Positions 2,197 to 64,000 of a stretch of DNA of 64,000 nt are shown in pieces; positions within the stretch are counted from its first letter, which is position 1; every line of letters begins with the position of its first letter. A model generated the notes under the pieces. It was not told the DNA's origin. It searched no databases and saw nothing but the letters and a program-made list of their open reading frames with translations. The translations under genes and the position numbers were made by a program. This stretch comes from Mobula hypostoma (Eukaryota). The stretch is taken from positions 21,328,001 to 21,392,000 of the forward strand of contig NC_086108.1 of assembly GCF_963921235.1 (NCBI RefSeq), in the 5' to 3' direction.

Positions 2197-5100
2197 TCAG
2201 AACCCCGCCCTAGCCTTCCCTCCATACCCCCTGACCCCTGTAGCCACAAGGGCCATATCTAACTCCCTCTTAAATATAGCTAATGAACTGGCCTCAACTG
2301 TTTCCTGTGGCAGAGAATTCCACAGATTCTCCACTCTCTGTGTGAAGAAGTTTTTCCTAATCTCGGTCCTAAAAGGCTTCCCCTCTATCCTCAAACTGTG
2401 GGCCCTTGTTCTGGACTTCCCCAACATCGGGAACAACCTTCCTGCATCTAGCCTGTTCAATCCCTTTAGGATCTTATACGTTTCAATCAGATTCCCCCTC
2501 AATCTTCTAAATTCCAACGAGTACAAGCCCAGTTCATCCAGTCTTTCTTCATATGAAAGTCCTGCCATCCCAGGAATCAATCTGGTGAACCTTCTTTGTA
2601 CGCCCTCTATGGCAAGGATGTCTTTCCTCAGATTAGGGGACCAAAACTGCACACAATACTCCAGGTGTGGTCTCACCAAGGCCTTGTACAACTGCAGTAG
2701 TACCTCCCTGCTCCTGTACTCGAATCCTCTCACTATAAATGCCAGCATACCATTCGCCTTTTTCACCGCCTGCTGTACCTGCATGCCCACTTTCAATGAC
2801 TGGTGTATAATGACACCCAGGTCTCGTTGCACCTCCCCTTTTCCTAATCAGCCACCATTCAGATAATAATCTGTTTTCCTATTTTTGCCACCAAAGTGGA
2901 TAACTTCACATTTATCCACATTAAGTTGCATCTGCCATGAATTTGCCCACTCACCCAACCTATCCAAGTCACCCTGCATCCTCTTAGCATCCTCCTCACA
3001 GCTAACACTGCCACCCAGCTTCGTGTCATCTGCAAACTTGGAGATGCTGCATTTAATTCCCTCATCCAAGTCATTAATATATATTGTAAACAACTGGGTT
3101 CCCAGCACTGAGCCTTGCGGTACCCCACTCGTCACCGCCTGCCATTCTGAAAAGGTCCCGTTTATTCCCACTCTTTGCTTCCTGTCTGCTAACCAATTCT
3201 CCACCCACACCAGTACCTTACCCCCAATACCGTGTGCCTTAAGTTTGCACACTAATCTCCTGTGTGGGACCTTGTCAAAAGCCTTTTGAAAATCCAAATA
3301 TACCACATCCACTGGTTCTCCCCTATCCACTCTACTAGTTACATCCTCAAAAAATTCTATGAGATTCGTCAGACATGATTTTCCTTTCACAAATCCATGC
3401 TGACTTTGTCCGATCATTTCACCGCTTTCCAAATGTGCTGTTATCACATCCTTGATAACTGACTCCAGCAGTTTCCCCACCACCAACGTTAGGCTAACTG
3501 GTCTATAATTCCCCGGTTTCTCTCTCCCTCCTTTTTTAAAAAGTGGAGTTACATTAGCCACCCTCCAATCCTCAGGAACTAGTCCAGAATCTAAAGAGTT
3601 TTGAAAAATTATCACTAATGCATCCACTATTTCTTGGGCTACTTCCTTAAGCACTCTAGGATGCAGACCATCTGGCCCTGGGGATTTATCTGCCTTTAAT
3701 CCCTTCAATTTACCTAACACCACTTCCCTACTAACATGTATTTCGCTCAGTTCCTCCATCTCACTGGACCCTCTGTCCCCTACTATTTCTGGAAGATTAT
3801 TTATGTCCTCCTTAGTGAAGACAGAATCAAAGTAATTATTCAATTGGTCTGCCATGTCCTTGCTCCCCATAATCAATTCACCTGTTTCTGTCTGCAGGGG
3901 ACCTACATTTGTCTTTACCAGTCTTTTCCTTTTTACATATCTATAAAAGCTTTTACAGTCAGTTTTTATGTTCCCTGCCAGTTTTCTCTCATAATCTTTT
4001 TTCCCCTTCCTAATTAAGCCCTTTGTCCTCCTCTGCTGAACTCTGAATTTCTCCCAGTCCTCAGGTGAGCCACTTTCTCTGGCTAATTTGTATGCTTCTT
4101 CTTTGGAATTGATACTAACCCTAATTTCTCTTGTCAGCCACGGGTGCACTACCTTCCTTGATTTATTCTTTTGCCAAACTGGGATGAACAATTGTTGTAG
4201 TTCATCCATGCAACCTTTAAATGCTTGCCATTGCATATCCACCGTCAATCCTTTAAGTGTCATTTGCCAGTCTATCTTAGCTAATTCACGTCTCATACCT
4301 TCAAAGTTACCCCTCTTTAAGTTCAGAACCTTTGTTTCTGAATTAACTATGTCGCTCTCCATCTTAATGAAGAATTCCACCATATTATGGTCACTCTTAC
4401 CCAAGGGGCCTCTCACGACAAGATTGCTAATTAACCCTTCCTCATTGCTCAAAACCCAGTCCAGAATACCCTGTTCTCTAGTTGGTTCCTCGACATGTTG
4501 GTTCAAAAAACCATCCCGCATACATTCCAAGAAATCCTCTTCCTCAGCACCTTTACCAATTTGGTTCACCCAGTCTACATGTAGATTGAAGTCACCCATT
4601 ATAACTGCTGTTCCTTTATTGCACACATTTCTAATTTCCTGTTTAATACCATCTCCGACCTCACTACTACTGTTAGGTGGCCTGTACACACTCCCACCAG
4701 CATCTTCTGCCCCTTAGTGTTACGCAGCTCTACCCATATCGATTCCACATCTTCCCGGCTTATGTCCTTCCTTTCTATTGCGTTAATCTCTCCTTTAACC
4801 AGCAACGCCACCCCACCTCCCCTTCCTTCATGTCTATCCCTCCTGAATATTGAATAACCCTGAAAGTTGAGCTCCCATCCCTGGTCACCCTGGAGCCATG
4901 TCTCTGTGATCCCAACTATATCATAATCATTAATAACAATCTGCACTTTCAATTCATCCACCTTATTACGAATGCTCCTTGCATTGACACACAAAGCCTT
5001 CAGGCGCTCTTTTACAACTCTCTTAGCCCTTATACAATTATGCTGAAAAGTGGCCCTTTTTAATGCTTGCCCTGGATTTGTCGGCCTGCCACTTTTACTT

Positions 5101-9078: not shown

Positions 9079-10100
9079 ACAGTGGATTCCAGATAAATGG
9101 CACACATTGGGATCATATATTTTGGATCAATTAAGTGGCTGTCCCAATTAGCCAAAATTTCATGGAAATAGTTAAAAGGCATAATAAAGACAAACTACCA
9201 TTCAATACAGTAACAAATTACACATTTAAATCTTCTTCATGTGCCTTGTGCATTACACGCTTGGGCGATCATGGCATTCCACATCAAATGATCCCATGCA
9301 GCGTCAATGATATCTCGCACACTTAGATCTCTTAGTTCTTTTACAGTGTCCATATATTTTCTTCTTTGCCTTCCTCTTCTGCGTTTCCCAGGCATACGGC
9401 CTTGTAATGTAAGGCATTCTATTTCTGATGACATGGCCCAGGAATTTAAGTTTCCTTTCATTTAATGCTCTCATTAAAGACTTCTTTTGTATGGGCACGT
9501 TGGAGTACTGTCTCATTAGTTACTCTATCTCTAAATGATATTTTCAACATTCTTCTAAGAAACCACATTTCTGTTGCTTCTAAGTTTCTTTGGAGTTCTG
9601 GTGTTATAGTCCATGTTTTGGAAGCATACAGCAAAATTGACCAGATGTAACATTTTAGTAGCCTAAACCTTGTTGTCATAGAAATGTGTCCGTTTGTAAA
9701 AATGGGTTAAATTTAAATTTAAATGAATGCATTTAAATAAAATACAGAATAAATTAGAACACTACCACAGTATTAGAAAACTATGTATTAGTTCCTAATG
9801 GTTATTGACAATGGAATTCATTGCTGCTATGTCCTTTTGATTGACTATAAATGAACAAATTCAGCGCAGACGCCTTATGTAGAAAATGAACTACCTTTAT
9901 TGCCTTCCTGCATAAAGTTAAAATAAACAAAATTATCAAAAAATTACTGCTTTTTGAATTGGCGTCCTTTGGCCCAAATGGATAACATAACACAAGCACA
10001 TATGACTGATGCTTTTTCAAAATGGTTTGCTCTGTAATGTCGAACAACCGCTTCTGGCATCTCCAAGCCTGAATGCTTGAAACCACAGAGAACATAACAG
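9079..10100. mobile_element. Probable TcMar/Tigger-type non-autonomous DNA transposon, interrupted by an RTE
   Basis: Begins TA-CAGTGGATTCC with subterminal caatta repeats; the right TIR was not found. Confidence 0.4.
9231..9705 (-). mobile_element. RTE-clade LINE 3' fragment with (GAA)n tail
   Basis: ORF 9458..9679 (ILLYASKTWT...EMWFLRRMLKIS.RDRVTNE) and 9237..9461 (GKRRRGRQR); atttaaat occurs on both flanks as a likely TSD. Confidence 0.85.
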
Positions 10101-15134: not shown

Positions 15135-18100
15135 AGTGTGTCCAGGATAGATTCCTGTCACAGCGGGCCAACTAGAGGGAATGCCATACTAGATCTAGTA
15201 TTAGGTAATGAACCGGGTCAGGTCACAGATCTCTCAGTGGGTGAGCATCTGGGAGACAGTGACCACTACTCCCTGGCCTTCAGTATTATCATGGAACATA
15301 AAAACGGACTGTAAAAGCTTTTATAGATATGTAAAAAGGAAAAGACTGATAAAGACAAATGTAGGTCCCCTGCAAACAGAAACAGGTGAATTGATTATGG
15401 GGAGCAAGGACATGGCAGACCAATTGAATAATTACTTTGGTTCTGTCTTCACTAAGGAGGACATAAATAATCTTCCAGAAATAGTAAGGGACAGAGGGTC
15501 CAGTGAGATGGAGGAACTGAGCGAAATACATGTTAGTAGGGAAGTGGTGTTAGGTAAATTGAAGGGATTGAAGGCAGATAAATCCCCAGGGCCAGATGGT
15601 CTGCATCCCAGAGTGCTTAAGGAAGTGGCCCAAGAAATAGTGGATGCATTAGTGATAATTTTTCAAAACTCGTTAGATTCTGGACTAGTTCCTGAGGATT
15701 GGAGGGTGGCTAATGTAACCCCACTTTTTAAAAAAGGAGGGAGAGAGAAACCGGGGAATTATAGGCCGGTTAGCCTAACGTCGGTGGTGGGGAAACTGCT
15801 GGAGTCAGTTATCAAGGATGTGATAACAGCACATTTGGAAAGCGGTGAAATGATCGGACAAAGTCAGCATGGATTTGTGAAAGGAAAATCATGTCTGACG
15901 AATCTCATAGAATTTTTTGAGGATGTAACTAGTAGAGTGGATAGGGGAGAACCAGTGGATGTGGTATATTTGGATTTTCAAAAGGCTTTTGACAAGGTCC
16001 CACACAGGAGATTAGTGTGCAAACTTAAAGCACATGGTATTGGGGGTAAGGTATTGGTGTGGGTGGAGAATTGGTTAGCAGACAGGAAGCAAAGAGTGGG
16101 AATAAACGGGACCTTTTCAGAATGGCAGGCGGTGACTAGTGGGGTACCGCAAGGCTCAGTGCTGGGACCCCAGTTGTTTACAATATATATTAATGACTTG
16201 GATGAGGGAATTAAATGCAGCATCTCCAAGTTTGCGGATGACACGAAGCTGGGTGGCAGTGTTAGCAGTGAGGAGGATGCTAAGAGGATGCAGGGTGACT
16301 TGGATAGGTTGGGTGAGTGGGCAAACTCATGGCAGATGCAATTTAATGTGGATAAATGTGAAGTTATCCACTTTGGTGGCAAAAATAGGAAAACAGATTA
16401 TTATCTGAATGGTGGCCGATTAGGAAAAGGGGAGGTGCAACGAGACCTGGGTGTCATTATACACCAGTCATTGAAAGTGGGCATGCAGGTACAGCAGGCG
16501 GTGAAAAAGGCGAACGGTATGCTGGCATTTATAGCGAGAGGATTCGAGTACAGGAGCAGGGAGGTACTACTGCAGTTGTACAAGGCCTTGGTGAGACCAC
16601 ACCTGGAGTATTGTGTGCAGTTTTGGTCCCCTAATCTGAGGAAAGACATCCTTGCCATAGAGGGAGTACAAAGAAGGTTCACCAGATTGATTCCTGGGAT
16701 GGCAGGTCTTTCATATGAAGAAAGACTGGATGAACTGGGCTTGTACTCGTTGGAATTTAGAAGATTGAGGGGGGATCTGATTGAAACGTATAAGATCCTA
16801 AAGGGATTGGACAGGCTAGATGCGGGAAGATTGTTCCCGATGTTGGGGAGGTCTAGAACGAGGGGTCACAGTTTGAGGATAGAGGGGAAGCCTTTTAGGA
16901 CCGAGGTTAGGAAAAACTTCTTCACACAGAGAGTGGTGAATCTGTGGAATTCTCTGCCACAGCAAACTGTTGAGGCCAGTTCATTAGCTATGTTTAAAAG
17001 GAAGTTAGATATGGCCCTTGTGGCTACAGGGGTCACGGGGTATGGAGGGAAGGCTGGGTTCTGAGTTGGATGATCAGCCATGATCATAATAAATGGCGGT
17101 GCAGGCTCGAAGGGCCGAATGGCCTACTCCTGCACCTATTTTCTATGTTTCTATGTAAAAGGATAGAATCAGACAGGACAGGAAAATTTTTAATTGGGGA
17201 AGGGCAAATGGTGAGGCTATAAGGCTAGAACTTGCAGGTGTGAACTGGGATGATGTTTTTGCTGGAAATGTACTATGGACATGTGATCGATGTTCAGAGA
17301 TCTCTGGCAGGATGTTAGGGATAAATTTGTCCCGGTGAGGAAGGTAAAGAATGGTAGGGTGAAGGAACCATGGGTGACAAGTAAGGTGGGAAATCTAGTC
17401 AGGTGGGAGAAGGCAGCATACATGAGGTTAAGGAAGCAAGGATCAGATGGGTCTATTGAGGAATATAGGGCAGCAAGAAAGGAGCTTAAGAAGGGGCTGA
17501 GAAGAGCAAGAAGGGGGCATGAGAAGGGTAAAGGAAAACCCCAAGGCATTCGTCAATTATGTGAAAAACAAAAGGATGACAGGAGTGAAGGTAGGACCGA
17601 TTAGAGATAAAGGTGGGAAGATGTGCCTGGAGGCTGTGGAAGTGAGCGAGGTCCTCAATGAATACTTTTCTTCGGTATTCATCAATGAGAGGGAACTTGA
17701 TGATGGTGAGAACAATATGAGTAAGGTTGATGTTCTGGAGCATGTTGATATTAAGGTAGAGGAGGTGTTGGAGTTATTAAAATACATTAGGACCGCTAAG
17801 TCCCTGGAGCCTGATGGAATATTCCCCAGGCTGCTCCATGAGGCGAGGGAAGAGACTGCTGAGCCTCTGGCTAGGATCTTTCTGTCCTCGTTATCCACGG
17901 GAATGGTACCGGAGGATTGGAGGGAGGCGAATGTTGTCCCCTTGTTCAAAAAAGGTAGTAGGGATAGTCTGGGTAATTATAGACCAGTGAGCCTTATGTC
18001 TGTGGTGGGAAAGCTGTTGGAAAAGATTCTTAGAGATAGGATCTCTGGGCATTTAGAGAATCATGGTCTGATCAGGGACAGTCAGCATGGCTTTGTGAAG

Positions 18101-18747
18101 GGCAGATCGTGTCTAACAAGCCTGACAGAGTTCTTTGAGGAGGTGACCAGGCATATACATGAGGGTAGTGCAGTGGATGTGATCTTCATGGATTTTAGTG
18201 AGGCATTTGACAAGGTTCCACACGGTAGGCTTATTCAGAAAGTCAGAAGGCATGGGATCCAGGGAAGTTTGGCCAGGTGGATTCAGAATTGGCTCGCCTG
18301 CAGAAAGCGAGTGGTGGAGGGAGTACATTCAGATTGGAGAGTAATGCGGATTCGGATTTGGAGTGAGAGTAATGCGCTCGGCACAGACTAGAAGGGTCGA
18401 GACGGCCTGTTTCCGTGCTGTGATTGTTATATAGTTATACGGTTATATGGAGGGTTGTGACTAGTGGTGTCCCACAAGGATCGGTTCTGGGAGCTCTACT
18501 TTTCGTGATTTTTATTAACAACCTGGATGTGGGGGTAGAAGGGTGGGTTGGCAAGTTTGAAGATGACACAAAGGTTGGTGGTGTTGTAGATAGTATAGAG
18601 GATTGTCAAAGATTGCAGAGAGACATTGATAGGTTGCAGAAGTGGGCTGAGAAGTGGCAGATGGAGTTCAACCCGGAGAATTGTGAGGTGGTACACTTTG
18701 GAAGGACAAACTCCAAGGCAGAGTACAAAGTAAATGGCAGGATACTT
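15135..18747 (+). mobile_element. Older CR1 subfamily ORF2, interrupted at 15291-17157 and ~18339-18447
   Basis: ORFs 15129..15314 (PTRGNAILDLVL..SDH), 17290..17604, 17519..18391 and the start of 18424 (GVPQGSVLG, KFEDDTK). Confidence 0.9.
15291..17157 (+). mobile_element. Young CR1 LINE copy 2, 5'-truncated, with uninterrupted RT and C-terminus
   Basis: From NIKTDCKS onward, ORF 15208..17064 is almost identical to copy 1; tail ttctatgtttctatgt. Confidence 0.95.
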
Positions 18748-26551: not shown

Positions 26552-29069
26552 CAGAGAGATAGCAGGCAACTGCAGGAAACATAAAGTTGTGGTGGTAGGG
26601 GATTTTAATTTTCCATACATTGATTGGGACTCCCATACTGTTAGGGGTCTAGATGGTTTAGAGTTTGTAAAATGTGTTCAGGAAAGTTTTCTAAATCAAT
26701 ATATAGAGGGACCAACTAGAGGGGATGTAATATTGGATCTCCTGTTAGGAAACGAGTTAGGACAAGTGACGGAAGTCTGTGTGGGGGAGCACTTTGGTTC
26801 CAGTGATCATAACACCATTAGTTTCAATTTGATCATGGACAAGGATAGATCTGGTCCTAGGGTTGAGGTTCTGAACTGGAAGGCGGCCAAATTTGAAGAA
26901 ATGAGAAAGGATCTAAAAACCGTGGATTGGGACAGGTTGCTCTCTGGCAAAGATGTGATTGGTAGGTGAGAAGCCTTCAAAGGGGAAATTTTGAGAGTGC
27001 AGAGTTTGTATATTCCTGTCAGGATTAAAGGCAAATTGAATAGGAATAAGGAACCTTGGTTCTCGAGGGATATTGCAACTCTGATAAAGAAGAAGAGGGA
27101 GTTGTATGAAATGTATAGGAAACAGGGAGTAAATCAGGTGCTTGAGGAGTATAAGAAGTGCAAGAAAATACTTAAGAAAGTAATCAGGAGGGCTAAAAGA
27201 AGACATGAGGTTGCCTTGGCAGTCAAAGTGAAGGATAATCCAAAGAGCTTTTACAGGTATATTAAGAGCAAAAGGATTGTAAGGGATAAAATTGGTCCTC
27301 TTGAAGATCAGAGTGGTTGGCTACGTATGGAACCAAAGGAAATGGGGGAGATCTTAAATAGGTTTTTTGCGTCTGTATTTACTAAGGAAACTGGCATGAA
27401 GTCTATGGAATTGAGGGAATCAAGTAGTGAGATCATGGAAACTGTACAGATTGAAAAGGAGGAGGTGCTTGCTGTCCTGAGGAAAATTAAAGTGGATAAA
27501 TCCCCGGGACCTGACAGAGTGTTCCCTCAGACCTTGAAGGAGACTAGTGTTGAAATTGCGGGGGCCCTGGCAGAAATATATAAAATGTCGCTGTCTACGG
27601 GTGAGGTGCCTGAGGATTGGAGAGTGGCTCATGTTGTCCCGTTGTTGAAAAAAGGATCGAAAAGTAATCCGGGAAATTATAGGCCGGTGCGTTTAACGTC
27701 GGTAGTAGGTAAATTATTGGAGGGAGTACTAAGAGACAGAATCTACAAGAATTTGGATAGACAGGGACTTATTAGGGAGAGTCAACATGGATTTGTGCGT
27801 GGTAGGTCATGTTTGACCAATCTATTGGAGTTTTTTGAGGAGGTTACCAGGAAAGTGGATGAAGGGAAGGCAGTGGATATTGTCTACATGGATTTCAGTA
27901 AGGCCTTTGACAAGGTCCCACATGGGAGGTTAGTTAGGAAAATTCAGTCGCTAGGTATGCATGGAGAGGTGGTAAATTGGATTAGACATTGGCTCAATGG
28001 AAGAAGCCAAAGAGTGGTGGTAGAGAATTGCTTCTCTGAGTGGAGGCCTGTGACTAGTGGTGTGCCACAGGGATCAGTGCTGGGTCCATTGTTATTTGTC
28101 ATTTATATCAATGATCTGGCTGATAATGTGGTAAATTGGATCAGCAAATTTGCTGATGATACAAAGATTGGAGGTGTAGTAGACAGTGAGGAAGGTTTTC
28201 AGAGCCTGCAGAGGGACTTGGACCAGCTGGAAAAATGGGCTGAAAAATGGCAGATGGAGTTTAATACAGACAAGTGTGAGGTATTACACGTTGGAAGGAC
28301 AAACCAAGGTAGAACATACAGGGTGAATGGTAAGGCACTGAAGAGTGCAGTAGAACAGAGGGATCTGGGAATACAGATACAAAATTCCCTAAAAGTGGCG
28401 TCACAAGTAGATAGGGTTGTAAAGAGAGCTTTTGGTACATTGGCCTTTATTAATCAAAGTATTGAGTATAACAGCTGGAATGTTATGATGAGGTTGTATA
28501 ATGCATTGGTGAGGCCGAATCTGGAGTATTGTGTTCAGTTTTGGTCACCAAATTACAGGAAGGATATAAATAAGGTTGAAAGAGTGCAGAGAAGGTTTAC
28601 AAGGATGTTGCCAGGACTTGAGAAACTCAGTTACAGAGAAAGGTTGAATAGGTTAGGACTTTATTCCCTGGAGCGTAGAAGAATGAGGGGAGATTTGATA
28701 GAGGTATATGAAATTATGATGGGTATAGATAGAGTGCATGCAAGCAGGCTTTTTCCACTGAGGCAAGGGGAGAAAGAAACCAGAGGACATGGGTTAAGGG
28801 TGAGGGGGGAAAAGTTTAAAGGGAACATTAGGGGGGGCTTCTTCACACAGAGAGTGGTGGGAGTATGGAATGAGCTGCCAGATGAGGTGGTAAATGCGGG
28901 TTCTTTATTAACATTTAAGAATAAATTGGACAGATACACGGATGAGAGGTGTATGGAGGGATATGGTCTGTGTGCAGGTCAGTGGGACTAGGCAGAAAAT
29001 GGGTTGGCACAGCCAAGAAGGGCCAAAAGGCCTGTTTCTGTGCTGTAGTTTCTATGGTTTCTATGGTTT
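26552..29069 (+). mobile_element. CR1 LINE, 5'-truncated in the endonuclease, (TTTCTATGG)n tail
   Basis: ORFs 26589..26969 (GDFN, SDH) and 26991..28991 are in the same frame, separated by one TGA. Confidence 0.95.
26991..28991 (+). CDS. CR1 ORF2 reverse transcriptase region (666-aa open stretch; element non-autonomous)
   Basis: KSPGPD, NYRPV, QHGF, YMDFSKAFDKV, GVPQGSVLGP, KFADDTK, LEYCVQFWSP. Confidence 0.9.
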   Translation: MRVQSLYIPVRIKGKLNRNKEPWFSRDIATLIKKKRELYEMYRKQGVNQVLEEYKKCKKILKKVIRRAKRRHEVALAVKVKDNPKSFYRYIKSKRIVRDKIGPLEDQSGWLRMEPKEMGEILNRFFASVFTKETGMKSMELRESSSEIMETVQIEKEEVLAVLRKIKVDKSPGPDRVFPQTLKETSVEIAGALAEIYKMSLSTGEVPEDWRVAHVVPLLKKGSKSNPGNYRPVRLTSVVGKLLEGVLRDRIYKNLDRQGLIRESQHGFVRGRSCLTNLLEFFEEVTRKVDEGKAVDIVYMDFSKAFDKVPHGRLVRKIQSLGMHGEVVNWIRHWLNGRSQRVVVENCFSEWRPVTSGVPQGSVLGPLLFVIYINDLADNVVNWISKFADDTKIGGVVDSEEGFQSLQRDLDQLEKWAEKWQMEFNTDKCEVLHVGRTNQGRTYRVNGKALKSAVEQRDLGIQIQNSLKVASQVDRVVKRAFGTLAFINQSIEYNSWNVMMRLYNALVRPNLEYCVQFWSPNYRKDINKVERVQRRFTRMLPGLEKLSYRERLNRLGLYSLERRRMRGDLIEVYEIMMGIDRVHASRLFPLRQGEKETRGHGLRVRGEKFKGNIRGGFFTQRVVGVWNELPDEVVNAGSLLTFKNKLDRYTDERCMEGYGLCAGQWD

Positions 29070-55094: not shown

Positions 55095-57083
55095 AAATGA
55101 AACATAGAAACATAGAAAATAGGTGCAGGAGTAGGCCAGTTGGCCCTTCGAGCCTGCACCGCCATTTATTATGATCATGGCTGATCATCCAACTCAGAAC
55201 CCCGCCCCAGCCTTCCCTCCATACCCCCTGATCCCTTTAGCCACAAGGGCCATATCTAACTCCCTCTTAAATATAGCCAATGAACTGGCCTCAACTGTTT
55301 CCTGTGGCAGAGAATTCCACAGATTCTCCACTCTCTGTGTGAAGAAGTTTTTCCTCATCTCGGTCCTAAAAGGCTTCCCCCTTATCTCAAACTGTGACCC
55401 CTCATTCTGGACTTCCCCAACATCGGGAACAATCTTCCTGCATCCAGCCTGTCCAATCCCTTTAGGATTTTATAGTTTCAATCAGATCCCCCCTCAATCT
55501 TTTAAATTCCAACGAGTACAAGCCTAGTTCATCCAGTCTTTCTTCATATGAAAGTCCTGCCATCCCAGGAATCAATCTGGTGAACCTTCTTTGTACTCCC
55601 CTTATGGCAAGGATGTCTTTCCTCAGATTAGGGGACCAGAACTGCACACAATACTCCAGGTGTGGTCTCACCAAGGCCTTGTACAACTGCAGTAGTACCT
55701 CCCTGCTCCTGTACTCGAATCCTCTCGCTATAAATGCCAGCATACCATTCGCCTTTTTCACCGCCTGCTGTACCTGCATGCCCACTTTCAATGACTGGTG
55801 TATAATGACACCCAGGTCTCGTTGCACCTCCCCTTTTCCTAATCGGCCACCATTCAGATAATAATCTGTTTTCCTATTTTTGCCACCAAAGTGGATAACT
55901 TCACATTTATCCACATTAAATTGCATCTGCCATGAATTTGCCCACTCACCCAACCTATCCAAGTCACCCTGCATCCTCTTAGCATCCTCCTCACAGCTAA
56001 CACTGCCGCCCAGCTTCGTGTTATCCGCAAACTTGGAGATGCTGCATTTAATTCCCACATCCAAGTCATTAATATATATTGTAAACAACTGGGGTGCCCC
56101 AGCACTGAGCCTTGCGGTACCCCACTAGTCACTGCCTGCCATTCTGAAAAGGTCCCGTTTATTCCCACTCTTTGCTTCCTGTCTGCCAACCAATTCTCTA
56201 TCCACATCAATACCTTACCCCCAATACCATGTGCTTTAAGTTTGCACACTAATCTCCTGCGTGGGACCTTGTCAAAAGCCTTTTGAAAATCCAAATATAC
56301 CACATCCACTGGTTCTCCCCTATCCACTCTACTAGTTACATCCTCAAAAAATTCTATGTGATTCGTCAGACATGATTTTCCTTTCACAAATCCATGCTGA
56401 CTTTGTCCAATCATTTCACCGCTTTCCAAATGTGCTGTTATCACATCTTTGATAACTGACTCCAGCAGTTTCCCCACCACCGACGTTAGGCTAACCGGTC
56501 TATAATTCCCCGGTTTCTCTCTCCCTCCTTTTTTAAAAAGTGGGGTTACATTAGCCACCCTCCAATCCTCAGGAACTAGTCCAGAATCTAAAGAGTTTTG
56601 AAAAATGATCACTAATGCATCCACTATTTCTTGGGCTACTTCCTTAAGCACTCTGGGATGCAGACCATCTGGCCCTGGGGATTTATCTGCCTTTAATCCC
56701 TTCAATTTACCTAACACCACTTCCCTACTAACATGTATTTCGCTCAGTTCCTCCATCTCACTGGACCCTCTGTCCCCTACTATTTCTGGAAGATTATTTA
56801 TGTCCTCCTTAGTGAAGACAGAACCAAAGTAATTATTCAATTGGCCTGTCATGTCCTTGCTCCCCATAATCAATTCACCTGTTTCTGTCTGTAGGGGACC
56901 TACATTTGTCTTTACCAGTCTTTTCCTTTTTACATATCTATAAAAGCTTTTACAGTCAGTTTTTATGTTCCCTGCCAGTTTTCTCTCATAATCTTTTTTC
57001 CCCTTCCTAATTAAGCCCTTTGTCCTCCTCTGCTGAACTCTGAATTTCTCCCAGTCCTCAGGTGAGCCACTTTTTCTGGCTAA
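55095..57083 (-). mobile_element. Young CR1 LINE copy 3, 5'-truncated and frameshifted
   Basis: ORFs 55854..56873 and 55462..56088 are near-identical to copies 1 and 2; tail gaaacatagaaacatagaaaatagg. Confidence 0.95.
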
Positions 57084-60579: not shown

Positions 60580-61380
60580 CAAACATACTGAATGTCACCA
60601 AAACCAAGGAGATGATCGTTGATTTCAGACGGTCTCAGCCTGAGCACACACCCCTCAGCATCAGCGGTTCCACAGTGGAGAGAGTGGAAAACATCAAGTT
60701 CCTTGGGGTGCAGATCTCAGATAATCTCACTTGGTCCAGGAACACCACTGGGATTGTGAAACGGGCCCAGCAGAGATTGCACTTTCTGAGGAAGCTTAAA
60801 CAAGCATCACTCCCCACTAACATCTTAACTACATTCTACAGAGGCGTGGTTGAGAGAGTGCTGACCTTTTGCATCACGACCTGGTACTCCAGCTGCAGTG
60901 CTGTTGACAAAAAAGCCTTGCAGAGGGCGGTTAGGGGAGCAGAGAAGATTATTGGGGTCTCCCTACCTTCTGTCCAAGACCTCTTTCAGAGTTGATGCCT
61001 CCAGAAGACACGGTACATCATTAAAGACCCCTCACACCCTCTCCATGAACTGTTTGTTCTTCTGCCATCAGGCAAACGTTACAGGAGCATCAAAACTAAA
61101 ACCACAAGGCTACTAAACAGCTTCCTCCCACAGGGAGTCAGACTGCTAAATAGCTGCTCTACCTGACTCTGCTTAGACACTTTTAACTTGCACTGGACAC
61201 TTATAACTGATTTAACTGACGTGGCTGTTGTGTTTTACTATTTATTGTTATGTTTATTATTTAGTGTTGCGTTTGTTATGTTATGATTGCACTGCCCCTG
61301 AGGAACGCTGTCTCATTCTGCCCTGCAGAGCTGATGTATGGTTAGAATGACAATAAAGTTTTTTGAATCTTTTGAATTTG
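60580..61380 (+). mobile_element. Rex1-like LINE 3' part
   Basis: ORF 60414..60995 LNVTKTKEMIVDFRR..IKFLGVQI..KRAQQRLHFLRKL. Confidence 0.88.
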
Positions 61381-62026
61381 AAAGTCACTCAAGTTTCTTC
61401 AAAGTAAATATTATTATCAAGGTACACATGTCACCATATACAACCCTCAGCCTTATTTTCTATAGTGCTGTGGTTATTATTTGTTCATTTTGCCCATTCA
61501 CCTTGTCAGATAGTTGTAGAAAAAGAAGAGATCATACAAACATTCACAGAATGTTGAGTGAAATTCCTCTGCTACTCTCTTTTGCCAGGATCATTATTCA
61601 ATTGACTTTACCAAACCTAAGCTTCAGTGGTCATGAACCTGAAAGAAGTGGCAGTTTTTATGTACTCAGCTAGCATAAATGACTTCTGAAAGGAAGCTGG
61701 TACACAAAAAAAAACAAGCAGCTGTAGTGGTCATGCATTATCTAAAGAGGGAAATGGTCATTTGGAGTTTCAGGTCAAGAAAGATTCACATGAAGGGACT
61801 CGAATCAAGGACACAGCTTAGAAACAATTCCATTTCCTTTGGCTTTAAGTCTATTACTAGCTCAAGTTATGCTGGGATAATTGAACTTTCCTGCTGTTTT
61901 GTGTTCTCTGCTATTCCCCTGAATATATATGATGGAGATACAATGTAAAATGCTGGTATGTAACTAACCATTTCAAAGTTTAAGCAAAATTAAATATGGT
62001 TGATATTCTCAAAGTAACTGAACCCC

Positions 62027-62593
62027 CCGGGGTGTATGGGGTGTCAGGGAGGGGTAGCACCTCTGGTGGGGGAACATGTCGCGTCCTTTTCAGGGCGGTT
62101 AGTCCACCTTTGGTCCCCACCTGGCACTCAGCTCTCACCTGTGGCTCCCTGTAGCTGTTTGCATGCGACAGCGGCCACACCCCAGGCAATGGCTTCGACA
62201 AGCCGGCTAAACCAGGTGAGGGTAGCCGACGGGTCTCAAACCCTCGGTGAGATAGGGAGTTGTCTATCCCAGCATGTGAAGACAGACTCCGGCGGATTGA
62301 GTGAACGAGACCTATGGAAGGTCCAACGGTCAAGAAGGCGGTCTCTACAAGCGTCGTGGAACGTGTAGAGCAGGACAAGACACAGAAGACGTCTCAGTCA
62401 TCCACTGCGCCTAGTCCCATCTCCAGCCGTCTAGACTCTGTCTTGCCACTGGATCCAGATGGGAATTGGGAAGAGAGAGTGAGGCTGACGCTGCGCAACT
62501 CTCCCTCACTTAAATCCAAATCACGCGCTAGTCTTGACACCATCATAATGGTGTCGAGGTCTTCATCGACGTCAATGATGGACGAACAACAAC
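62027..62593 (+). mobile_element. Complete non-autonomous retroposon (RTE-type inferred), (CAA)n tail, 11-bp TSD
   Basis: aactgaacccc at 62016-62026 and 62594-62604; tail aacaacaac; GC/CpG-rich body with no credible ORF. Confidence 0.85.
62029..62220 (+). ncRNA. HDV-like ribozyme candidate with an expanded L3
   Basis: P1 GGGGUGU/ACACCCC, P2 CUCACCUG/CAGGUGAG, P3 GGC/GCC, P4 UGGCUU/AAGCCG and J4/2 GCUAA, in canonical order. Confidence 0.65.
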
Positions 62594-63134
62594 AACTGAA
62601 CCCCAAACCCAAGCACAAAATAAACTACAAATAGCATTCATCGTTAACAATCTGAACCCAAGCTATGATTTCAAGAATTTAGTAAAGAAAAAAGATATAA
62701 TTAAAAATCAGCTTTTAAAGTTGTACATAAATTAGTTGTGATATCTGGCTTAGTGAAGTCACTTAACTCATCAGGGCAGAAAAGGAGAGTTTTCAAAATT
62801 TCACTGAACTCCTCATATCACAACCCACTCTTAAAAACACAGGAAGAGGCCACTGGCACAATTGCTTTATGCTAGTGCTTACATTCCACGTGTTCAGTCC
62901 AATCTTGCTGCATCACAGCTTATCAACCTATCCTGCCATTTCCTTTTCCTTTCAATTTTCCTTGGATTACACTAAAATTAATGTGTTGTTTACTTAAATA
63001 CCTTTACATTATATTTTTGAGTCAGAGGCTGTTTGAGATGCACACCAATGGGAGGATTTAATAGGTGGTGGGAGCTCATTGCCACTGCCCCCTGGCTATA
63101 ACAACCTTAACAAACCAATTATACCAAACTTAAG

Positions 63135-63642
63135 GTCTCAGATAAGCTCTGACAACCACGTCCAGCACCAGGCATTCACACGTGGCTAAGCTACTAAGCC
63201 TGGCAGAACCATTTCTATTGACGTGAGAAGGGGTAAACGTGGGTTATTGGCACCTTAAGACCAATCTCTTCAGGCATATGAGGTTCATCAGTTGTGGCTG
63301 ACAGCTCATCTAGGAGAAGGAAAACTCTGATCTCAAACCTCAGCTGCCTTGCGGCTATACCTGCTCATGGGAAAAGCTTCAGGAGTAAACCCCGAGGAAA
63401 AATCCAGAGATTGAGTCCCTAACGCAGTCCCATGTCAAGTTCAACGCTGACTGGCAACTCCTGCGACGCTGCTTGCGCCAAATTGTATCGGTCTGTCCCG
63501 TTCCTTTGGATTTATCAGCTGCATGGAGGGTGGAGCCTGCTACATGGGCATCACTTGCTCTCCACATTGAATTGACCTCACTTACATATCATGCAGACAG
63601 CCAGGATGCAACGTCCATGGTCAACCCTGACCAGCGGAGCTC
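63135..63642 (+). mobile_element. Older RTE-related non-autonomous element
   Basis: ggagaaggaaaactctgatctcaaacc resembles RTE/Expander 5' UTRs (recalled, not searched); higher GC than the flanks. Confidence 0.4.
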
Positions 63643-63719
63643 AGCTTTCTCACTGCTTTCTAAATAATGAAGTTTCACTTCAATACTTTTACAAGTTGAT
63701 TAGTGACCACCTTGTATTT

Positions 63720-64000
63720 ATGAACTGAGGGGTGACCTGATAGAGGTGTATAAGATGATGAGAGGCATTAATCAAGTGGATAGTCAGAGGCTTTTTCCCA
63801 GGGCTGAAATGGCTAACACGAGAGGGCACAGTTTTAAGGCGCTTGGAAGTAGGTGTAGAGGAGATGTCAGGGGTAACTTTTTTATGCGGAGAGTGGTGAG
63901 TGCGTGGTTTTAGCTAAGATAGACTGGCAAATGACACTTAAAGGGTTGATGGTGGATATGCTATGGAAAGCATTTAAAGATTGCATGGATGAACTACATA
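63720..64000 (+). mobile_element. CR1 3' fragment
   Basis: ctgaggggtgacctgatagaggtgtataag (LRGDLIEVYK) and acgagagggcacagtttt (TRGHSF). Confidence 0.8.

Follow-up and report, generated by a model that had tools for sequence, protein, structure and literature searches.

An RTE-derived retroposon family of Mobula hypostoma with a predicted HDV-type ribozyme and a putative hairpin insert in its L3 loop

The F1 element and where its copies begin

The window considered here, i.e. the whole stretch of 64,000 nucleotides of the Mobula hypostoma genome that we analyzed (contig NC_086108.1, positions 21,328,001 to 21,392,000), contains near its right end two retroposon copies from different families, which we call F1 and F2. 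Their features, all on the plus strand, are as follows.

62016..62026 (+): left target site duplication (TSD) of 11 bp, AACTGAACCCC, followed by two extra C
62029..62593 (+): non-autonomous bipartite RTE-derived retroposon of family F1 (562-nt consensus plus (AAC)n tail)
62029..62035 (+): 5' strand of P1, with G62029 as G1 and the predicted cleavage site immediately 5' of it (element 5' ends; forced-fold energies)
62036..62130 (+): structured J1/2 domain (P1.2), its base formed by the second GGGGTGT unit, 62039-48 with 62120-29 (pair probabilities 0.93-0.99; covariation)
62131..62142 (+): 5' strand of P2, 12 bp with 62211 and 62213-23, one bulge (98% of cells paired)
62143..62145 (+): 5' strand of P3, pairing with 62174-76 (invariant in seven lineage consensuses)
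62146..62152 (+): canonical 7-nt L3 head, consensus UCCCCGU (equivalents of U20, C21, C22 and G25), which fits TYYHCGY
62153..62173 (+): 21-nt L3 insert, consisting of A, a predicted 6-bp stem (62154-59/62167-72), a 7-nt loop and G (lineage comparison, shuffles)
62177..62185 (+): 3' strand of P1 plus the P1.1 partners (GG in the consensus, AG in the window copy)
62190..62205 (+): P4 hairpin (two-sided changes between lineages)
62206..62210 (+): J4/2, GCUAA, with the putative catalytic C62207 (30/30 copies; C in all seven lineage consensuses)
62211..62223 (+): 3' strand of P2, pairing with 62131-42
62224..62535 (+): rest of the part derived from an RTE 5' UTR (68-76% identity to autonomous APE-RT 5' UTRs, L136 and L142-L191)
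62533..62558 (+): 11-bp hairpin where the 5'- and 3'-derived halves join (analogous long-range duplex in family C)
62559..62593 (+): RTE 3' tip and (AAC)n tail (15/16 nt match the 3' end of intact family C)
62594..62604 (+): right TSD of 11 bp, the same sequence as on the left
63021..63639 (+): older retroposon copy of family F2, with its first ~100 nt inverted at 63021-63116; the F2 consensus starts with an HDV-like fold that has a different L3 hairpin

As judged from its sequence, F1 is a young bipartite non-autonomous RTE derivative, which unites the 5' UTR and the 3' tip of an RTE LINE. A first look at the 3.48 Gb genome yielded at least 2908 candidate copies, 40 of which were scored, and the 562-nt consensus was built from the 30 best. 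Most of these 30 lie ~2% from the consensus, 23 long copies picked by their 3' end have a mean identity of 96.9%, and the window copy differs from the consensus at 13 of 562 positions. TSDs of 7-14 bp flank 39 of 45 near-full-length copies, and the tails are (AAC)n or (AACC)n. At the window element, tblastn gave no match to endonuclease or reverse transcriptase (RT) coding sequence, and no tRNA head was found; a protein-coding role was rejected, as was, for want of the tRNA, the identity of F1 as a tRNA-headed SINE.

The first-pass annotation had proposed that an HDV-like ribozyme defines the beginning of the element, and had predicted that the 5' ends of the copies would cluster at GGGGTGT. 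This is what was found among 30 copies, including the one in the window, that were selected by their last 91 nt: nt 1 is the start of 14 and nt 2-5 that of four, which makes 18/30 at nt 1-5, while four start at nt 9-14 and eight deeper. No base intervenes between the TSD and G1 in 20 of the 39 copies with a TSD, and 1-10 extra bases do so in 19. In a few cases, the extra bases correspond to the last part of a third GGGGTGTAT unit; one copy, L021, has three units. The base before G1 is T in 27 of 45 copies, compared to ~29% in the flanks. The extra bases and the preference for T may result from target choice, from junction repair, or from RNA that carries upstream bases.

The repeat of GGGGTGT reported at 62038 is indeed present, but its role in closing the P1.2 domain had not been recognized. 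This unit was considered as the main P1 and rejected: it is paired in P1.2 with a probability above 0.9, and the fold with the first unit forced into P1 is 8.3 kcal/mol better than the one with the second. The same data bear on the possibility that cutting occurs mainly, or also, before the second unit (62038), the first one being a 5' duplication as modeled for R2. That model permits cuts at either duplicate P1, and would agree with the four copies that begin at nt 9-14, with about half of the lineage B copies, which appear to begin near the second unit, and with the copies that have a third or partial unit (L021, L028). However, the majority of starts at nt 1-5, the energetic penalty, the covariation of the second unit within P1.2 and the retention of both units in metagenome relatives ~70% alike make this alternative very improbable, and we retain cleavage before G62029 as the preferred reading. 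A whole or partial extra 5' unit was seen in L021, L028, L006, L010 and L237. In lineage B, a change from T to C is found in both GGGGTGT-type units together, which hints, at the level of sequence comparison, that the 5' unit duplication is regenerated or homogenized.

Fit of the F1 core to the HDV topology

The HDV-like strands that the first-pass annotation had assigned within 62029-62220 were all recovered: P1 (62029-35/62177-83) with the repeat at 62038-44, P2, P3, the 28-nt L3 (62146-73) with GCTGTT/GACAGC, AG at 62184-85, P4 (62190-205), and GCTAA with C62207. Beyond this description, P2 is longer (12 bp, interrupted by one bulge), and J1/2 forms an extended domain with a structure of its own. 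F1 has the nested double-pseudoknot order P1-P2-P3-P1.1-P4. Its P1 starts with G and is 7 bp long (6 bp in F2), P3 comprises three Watson-Crick pairs (GGC/GCC in seven lineages, GCC/GGC in F2), and the position of the catalytic C62207 in J4/2 (CNRA) is occupied by C in 30/30 F1 copies. The rule that is broken concerns L3, expected to have 7-8 nt (TYYHCGY) and found here with 26-28 nt. In its sequence pattern, F1 appears to work like an HDV-type ribozyme, but it fails the L3-length rule.

We used a descriptor of the HDV topology that allows for an L3 insert and that was written after the sequence had been seen. It gives a single match on the 562-nt F1 consensus (P2 of 12 bp, P4 of 6 bp), while among 3000 dinucleotide shuffles two match at all and none as strongly. 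With the L3 insert limited to 1 nt, the F1 consensus has no match. This agrees with the earlier claim that standard descriptors miss the long L3, given that the published one fixes L3 at 7 nt. When the catalytic C in the descriptor was swapped for A, G or T, no match was obtained in 1.08 Mb of collected loci, whereas the version with C gave 53 family cores and one other match. Searches of Rfam returned no ribozyme match, either for window positions 61000-64000 at E<=10 or for 11 loci at E<=1. Plain minimum free energy folding of the window sequence gave no signal (z -0.30), which is uninformative and expected because the fold is a pseudoknot. The family consensus, by these sequence comparisons, is compatible with the HDV double pseudoknot.

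Owing to A62184, the window copy does not match the descriptor. The consensus had been predicted to have G at this position; G is present in 24/30 copies and all lineage consensuses, as well as in the contigs of 4/4 outside public runs, and it restores the GG of P1.1 that the window copy lacks. The consensus also has C at 62150 (22/30 copies) and C at 62190 (21/30). With G at 62184 and C at 62190, the family retains both P1.1 and the first P4 pair, which have decayed in the window copy; having lost one P1.1 pair (G38A), this copy is probably slow or dead as a ribozyme.

Seven lineage consensuses were derived, with correction for CpG decay, from 29 of 30 loci for F1, 3 of 5 for A, 11 of 12 for B, 6 of 12 for D, 10 of 12 for E, two for M1 and one for M2, the remaining loci having been missed by the extraction pattern. 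They are 65-87% alike, with A and E near-identical, and all seven keep P3, the 3' strand of P1, GG, the catalytic C and P2, as well as the equivalents of U20 and G25. Pairing in the core, measured on 14 real copies, amounts to 96.8% and drops to 30-49% when slid. Covariation had been predicted for the stems, and it was found in P4, where three pairs are changed on both sides between the F1 and the lineage A/E consensuses (two such in alignment A1), but not in the L3 stem, which among 14 aligned sequences has one-sided changes only and is 97% paired. P2 exhibits no two-sided change and 98% of its cells are paired. Across six lineages, J1/2 has 30 pairs, 13 with two-sided and nine with one-sided change, and 169 of 179 cells paired, although this structure was derived from the same alignment on which the pairs were counted. 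By analogy to Agam-2, the second GGGGTGT would close a covarying J1/2 domain. The consensus core, the 5' ends and the P4 changes support the original claim of an HDV-like ribozyme at the element 5' end, and we regard it as likely that the head of the F1 family is an active self-cleaving ribozyme of the HDV type.

The L3 insert and its parallel in family F2

In F1, the L3 loop comprises the 7-nt head followed by A, a stem, a 7-nt loop, the second side of the stem, and G. The head fits TYYHCGY in F1, in lineage B (UCCUCGU) and in F2, while its position 5, where the descriptor fixes C, is A in lineages A, D, E and M1; an inactive R2 ribozyme has C-to-A and G-to-A changes in L3. The insert is present in all seven lineages found, the autonomous RTEs included, and has 21 nt in F1, B and D and 19 nt in A, E, M1 and M2; in the shorter version each strand of the stem lacks one base, and the 7-nt loop is kept. 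A short-loop search of the whole genome gave nine matches, all different from one another (four were inspected); an 8-nt loop occurs in two of them, both decayed single copies from lineage D. In HDV, the 3' end of L3 faces solvent. At this end genomic HDV exceeds antigenomic HDV and CPEB3 by one base, according to the accessible part of a preprint (bioRxiv 10.1101/2022.09.22.508989).

Shuffling gives p values of 0.02-0.06 for the stem per lineage, the lineages being kin, and of 0.5 for the autonomous lineage A, in which three of four aligned copies have a C-A mismatch in the stem. Inspection by eye of 81 A/E-type matches, for which the insert had been left unconstrained, revealed this mismatch in none. 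In the pseudoknot-free ensemble, the probability is 0.37 for the L3 stem and 0.28 for P3, which indicates that misfolding competes.

Family F2 provides a parallel case. It has 8942 candidates in the genome, is ~590 bp long and non-coding, and its copy in the window lies 600 bp from the F1 element. F1 and F2 have no BLAST similarity to each other, and their global alignment over the first 200 nt merely ties the best of 200 shuffles. The 5' ends of F2 fall at GGTTCC (at nt 1 in 14/30 copies, at nt 1-4 in 19/30), and this putative P1 strand pairs with GGAACC after the GCC/GGC P3. The L3 head reads UUCACGU and J1/4 is GU, and at the position of the F1 insert there is a perfect 7-bp stem (shuffle p 0.009 for the stem and 0.001 for the energy). 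The length of the F2 L3 loop is the same in 65/72 matches, and none has a 7-8-nt loop. The F2 fold, with its weak P2, is the result of manual parsing, and both the HDV descriptor and model R1 miss it; across 14 sources, the R1 search recovered only the window F1 copy. No autonomous partner was found for F2. The predicted F2 hairpin constitutes the strongest support for a real helix at this place in L3.

It is possible that the ribozyme is active but that the L3 insert has been tolerated as a neutral passenger, without selection for a helix; this would be compatible with our main reading as far as cleavage is concerned. The lack of two-sided covariation, the stem broken in one lineage and the modest shuffle p values would all be expected of such a passenger. 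However, the insert is kept in 7/7 lineages, F2 has a hairpin of its own at the same place, and versions with a short loop are limited to the nine unlike matches, among them the decayed lineage D pair. We consider a neutral insert unlikely, though far from negligible, and prefer a helix that is maintained.

Several of eight broken F2 copies that are near-identical (L260-L262, L269 and four others) lie near contig starts; the eight likely represent one dead copy spread by segmental duplication. A motif downstream in F2 occurs in Ingi-3_AC and several RTE entries in the accessible part of the supplement of PMC5786205.

RTE partners, mechanism and relation to known ribozymes

A metagenome scan with an 18-nt motif gave 13 matches, nine of which are due to chance and four, on three contigs, are relatives of the element. 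In the relative L136, nt 1-505 are shared at 68% and are followed by an ORF for an APE endonuclease. A search of the Mobula genome with this protein retrieves autonomous families, lineages A and B, with 5' UTRs that match nt 1-507 of F1 at 70-75%. Of 7756 candidates 139 were scored, and in the 30 loci taken from these the autonomous 5' UTRs most similar to F1 reach 70-76%; no direct, near-identical autonomous parent was found among them.

Family C (L172-L183, e.g. G000:C50:39668500-39674500), a young family retrieved with the same L136 protein, encodes an intact APE-RT ORF of 1129 aa with Exo_endo_phos and RVT_1, and its copies are 95.5-96.7% alike. Its 3' tail is identical to that of the F1 element at 15/16 nt, and it shares F1 nt 232-510, while a GC-rich 5' part replaces the ribozyme; family C may have swapped self-cleavage for a promoter. 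The putative RTE affiliation of this partner LINE rests on similarity to Repbase RTE fragments. Strands from the 5' UTR and the 3' UTR of family C (L172-L182), 3.2-3.6 kb apart, match the junction hairpin of F1. This long-range pairing beats 98% or more of other windows in 7/10 copies, one copy being weaker and two mis-anchored, and the same 5'/3' pairing is seen in L132. The latter (L132:1329-1945) is a non-autonomous metagenome relative of ~610 bp, located where a ubiquitin-hydrolase (UCH) reading frame begins.

We propose that the first 195 bases of F1 would self-cleave just before G62029, freeing the element RNA from read-through transcripts, presumably by the usual C75/Mg mechanism, and that the P1.2 domain and the 12-bp P2 could pinch P1 and P2 together, as shown for Agam-2. 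The extra hairpin predicted on the 3' side of L3 would leave the seven catalytic-loop bases in place, the insert folding on itself and pointing away from the core, and it may be kept because the folded insert limits L3 mispairing or aids folding or protein binding. The freed RNA would then be copied in trans by an RTE protein via the 3' tip, for which the intact family C is the best candidate.

Alternatively, the fold could be real but non-cutting, with the 5' end set by the transcription start and the structure serving protein binding, stability or translation. An L3 three to four times the known length, the altered conserved L3 base in several lineages, the amplification of family C without the ribozyme part and the extra bases before G1 in 19/39 copies could be read in this way. 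However, lineages no more than 65-87% alike have all retained the catalytic C, U20, G25, P1.1 and P3, and in each of two dissimilar families the element starts with its own P1 strand; a role without catalysis would not require the two together. This explanation is therefore improbable, and self-cleavage remains the preferred one.

HDV-like ribozymes were reportedly described at the 5' ends of non-LTR elements by Ruminski in 2011. They process the 5' ends of RTE, R2 and Ingi elements, according to the accessible parts of three sources (PMC3774820, PMC6765202, PMC5786205), and those of R2, L1Tc and RTE give the RNA a fixed 5' end. F1 resembles the R2, R4, RTE, Ingi/L1Tc and LOA/Baggins ribozymes in its place at the element 5' end, in helix order and in the U20/G25/C75 equivalents; however, in what these same three sources make available, the reported size variation is in J1/2 and L4, and L3 is highly conserved. 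With drz-Agam-2-1, in which P1.2 and a 12-bp P2 speed the reaction, F1 shares the long structured J1/2 (P1.2), the 12-bp P2 and P1 at the start of the motif, but the accessible part of PMC4908430 mentions no L3 insert for Agam-2-1, whereas L3 of F1 has 26-28 nt with a stem, and in F1 a duplicate of the P1 5' strand contributes to the base of P1.2. F2 is similar to the CPEB3 ribozyme in its L3 head U-U-C-A-C-G-U and J1/4 G-U, but CPEB3 has an L3 of 7 nt (genomic HDV 8, antigenomic 7) and F2 adds 20 nt with a 7-bp stem (comparison with the accessible part of bioRxiv 10.1101/2022.09.22.508989). As in WALLSI3, RTESINE1/2, MAR4_MD and RTE-N2_Lch, an RTE 5' UTR is joined in F1 to a 3' tip without an ORF; however, in the accessible part of that work (Kojima 2018, PMC5786205) some RTEs are merely predicted to carry a ribozyme, and the ribozyme motifs searched for were not found in the corresponding part of its supplement. 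HDV variants were also reported by Weinberg in 2015, and differ in P4 according to a second-hand description.

The HDV-like ribozyme at an RTE 5' end and the bipartite RTE derivatives are already known. What appears to be new, as far as sequence can tell, is the predicted hairpin insert within L3 of an HDV-type fold; no such variant was found in the literature searched, which covers the core ribozyme surveys in part, so it may have been described earlier. L3 of HDV contributes to the active site, and its length is regarded as invariably 7-8 nt. A natural 20-nt helix in it, if true, would change the structural rules of the HDV-like family, indicate at which points the core can accept additional domains (of use in aptazyme design), and imply that censuses of ribozyme-headed retrotransposons are too low. 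Constructs are at hand in a consensus 2-3% from its copies, seven lineages, the unrelated parallel family F2 and the sister LINE C that replaced the ribozyme, and the set of F1, F2 and family C makes it testable whether RTE mobility needs 5' self-cleavage.

In the accessible part of the supplement of PMC5786205, the turtle element RTE-11_PSi (positions 370-519) differs from F1 consensus nt 356-505 at ~10 of 150 bases, counted by eye, and window positions 62384-62533 have ~93% identity to it, also by eye; the 3' end of RTE-1_PSi is similar to F1 as well. The likeness to RTE-11_PSi could reflect horizontal transfer. We suggest tentatively, at just short of an even chance, that active HDV-like ribozymes with a functionally required fifth helix in L3 are used by a whole branch of RTEs and kindred LINEs of this genome and other animals, probably including the turtle and marsupial RTEs that share the 5' UTR, and that this helix occurs with at least two unrelated sequences. 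This would be a large class missed by descriptor and Rfam searches, with L3 as a natural site for added domains.

Elsewhere, the results were negative: DUF6451-bearing RTE loci (30 plus 8 extended) have no similarity to F1, a second RTE family set (30 loci) revealed no convincing HDV fold, viral contigs contained neither a motif match nor a related protein locus, prokaryote genome contigs contained four RT loci with the ribozyme in none, and a PDB sequence search with the endonuclease gave no match. In a different RTE family (L275-L284, L289), the 5' end, located ~260 nt upstream of the endonuclease match, is short, conserved and sharply delimited, and contains complementary segments; it gave no HDV descriptor or Rfam match and is possibly another ribozyme type. 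Finally, the window contains six decayed RT fragments of other LINE types (2638-4251, 9476-9685, 15370-16629, 17618-18217, 27459-28670 and 56097-56894), with 22-33% identity to the family C protein.
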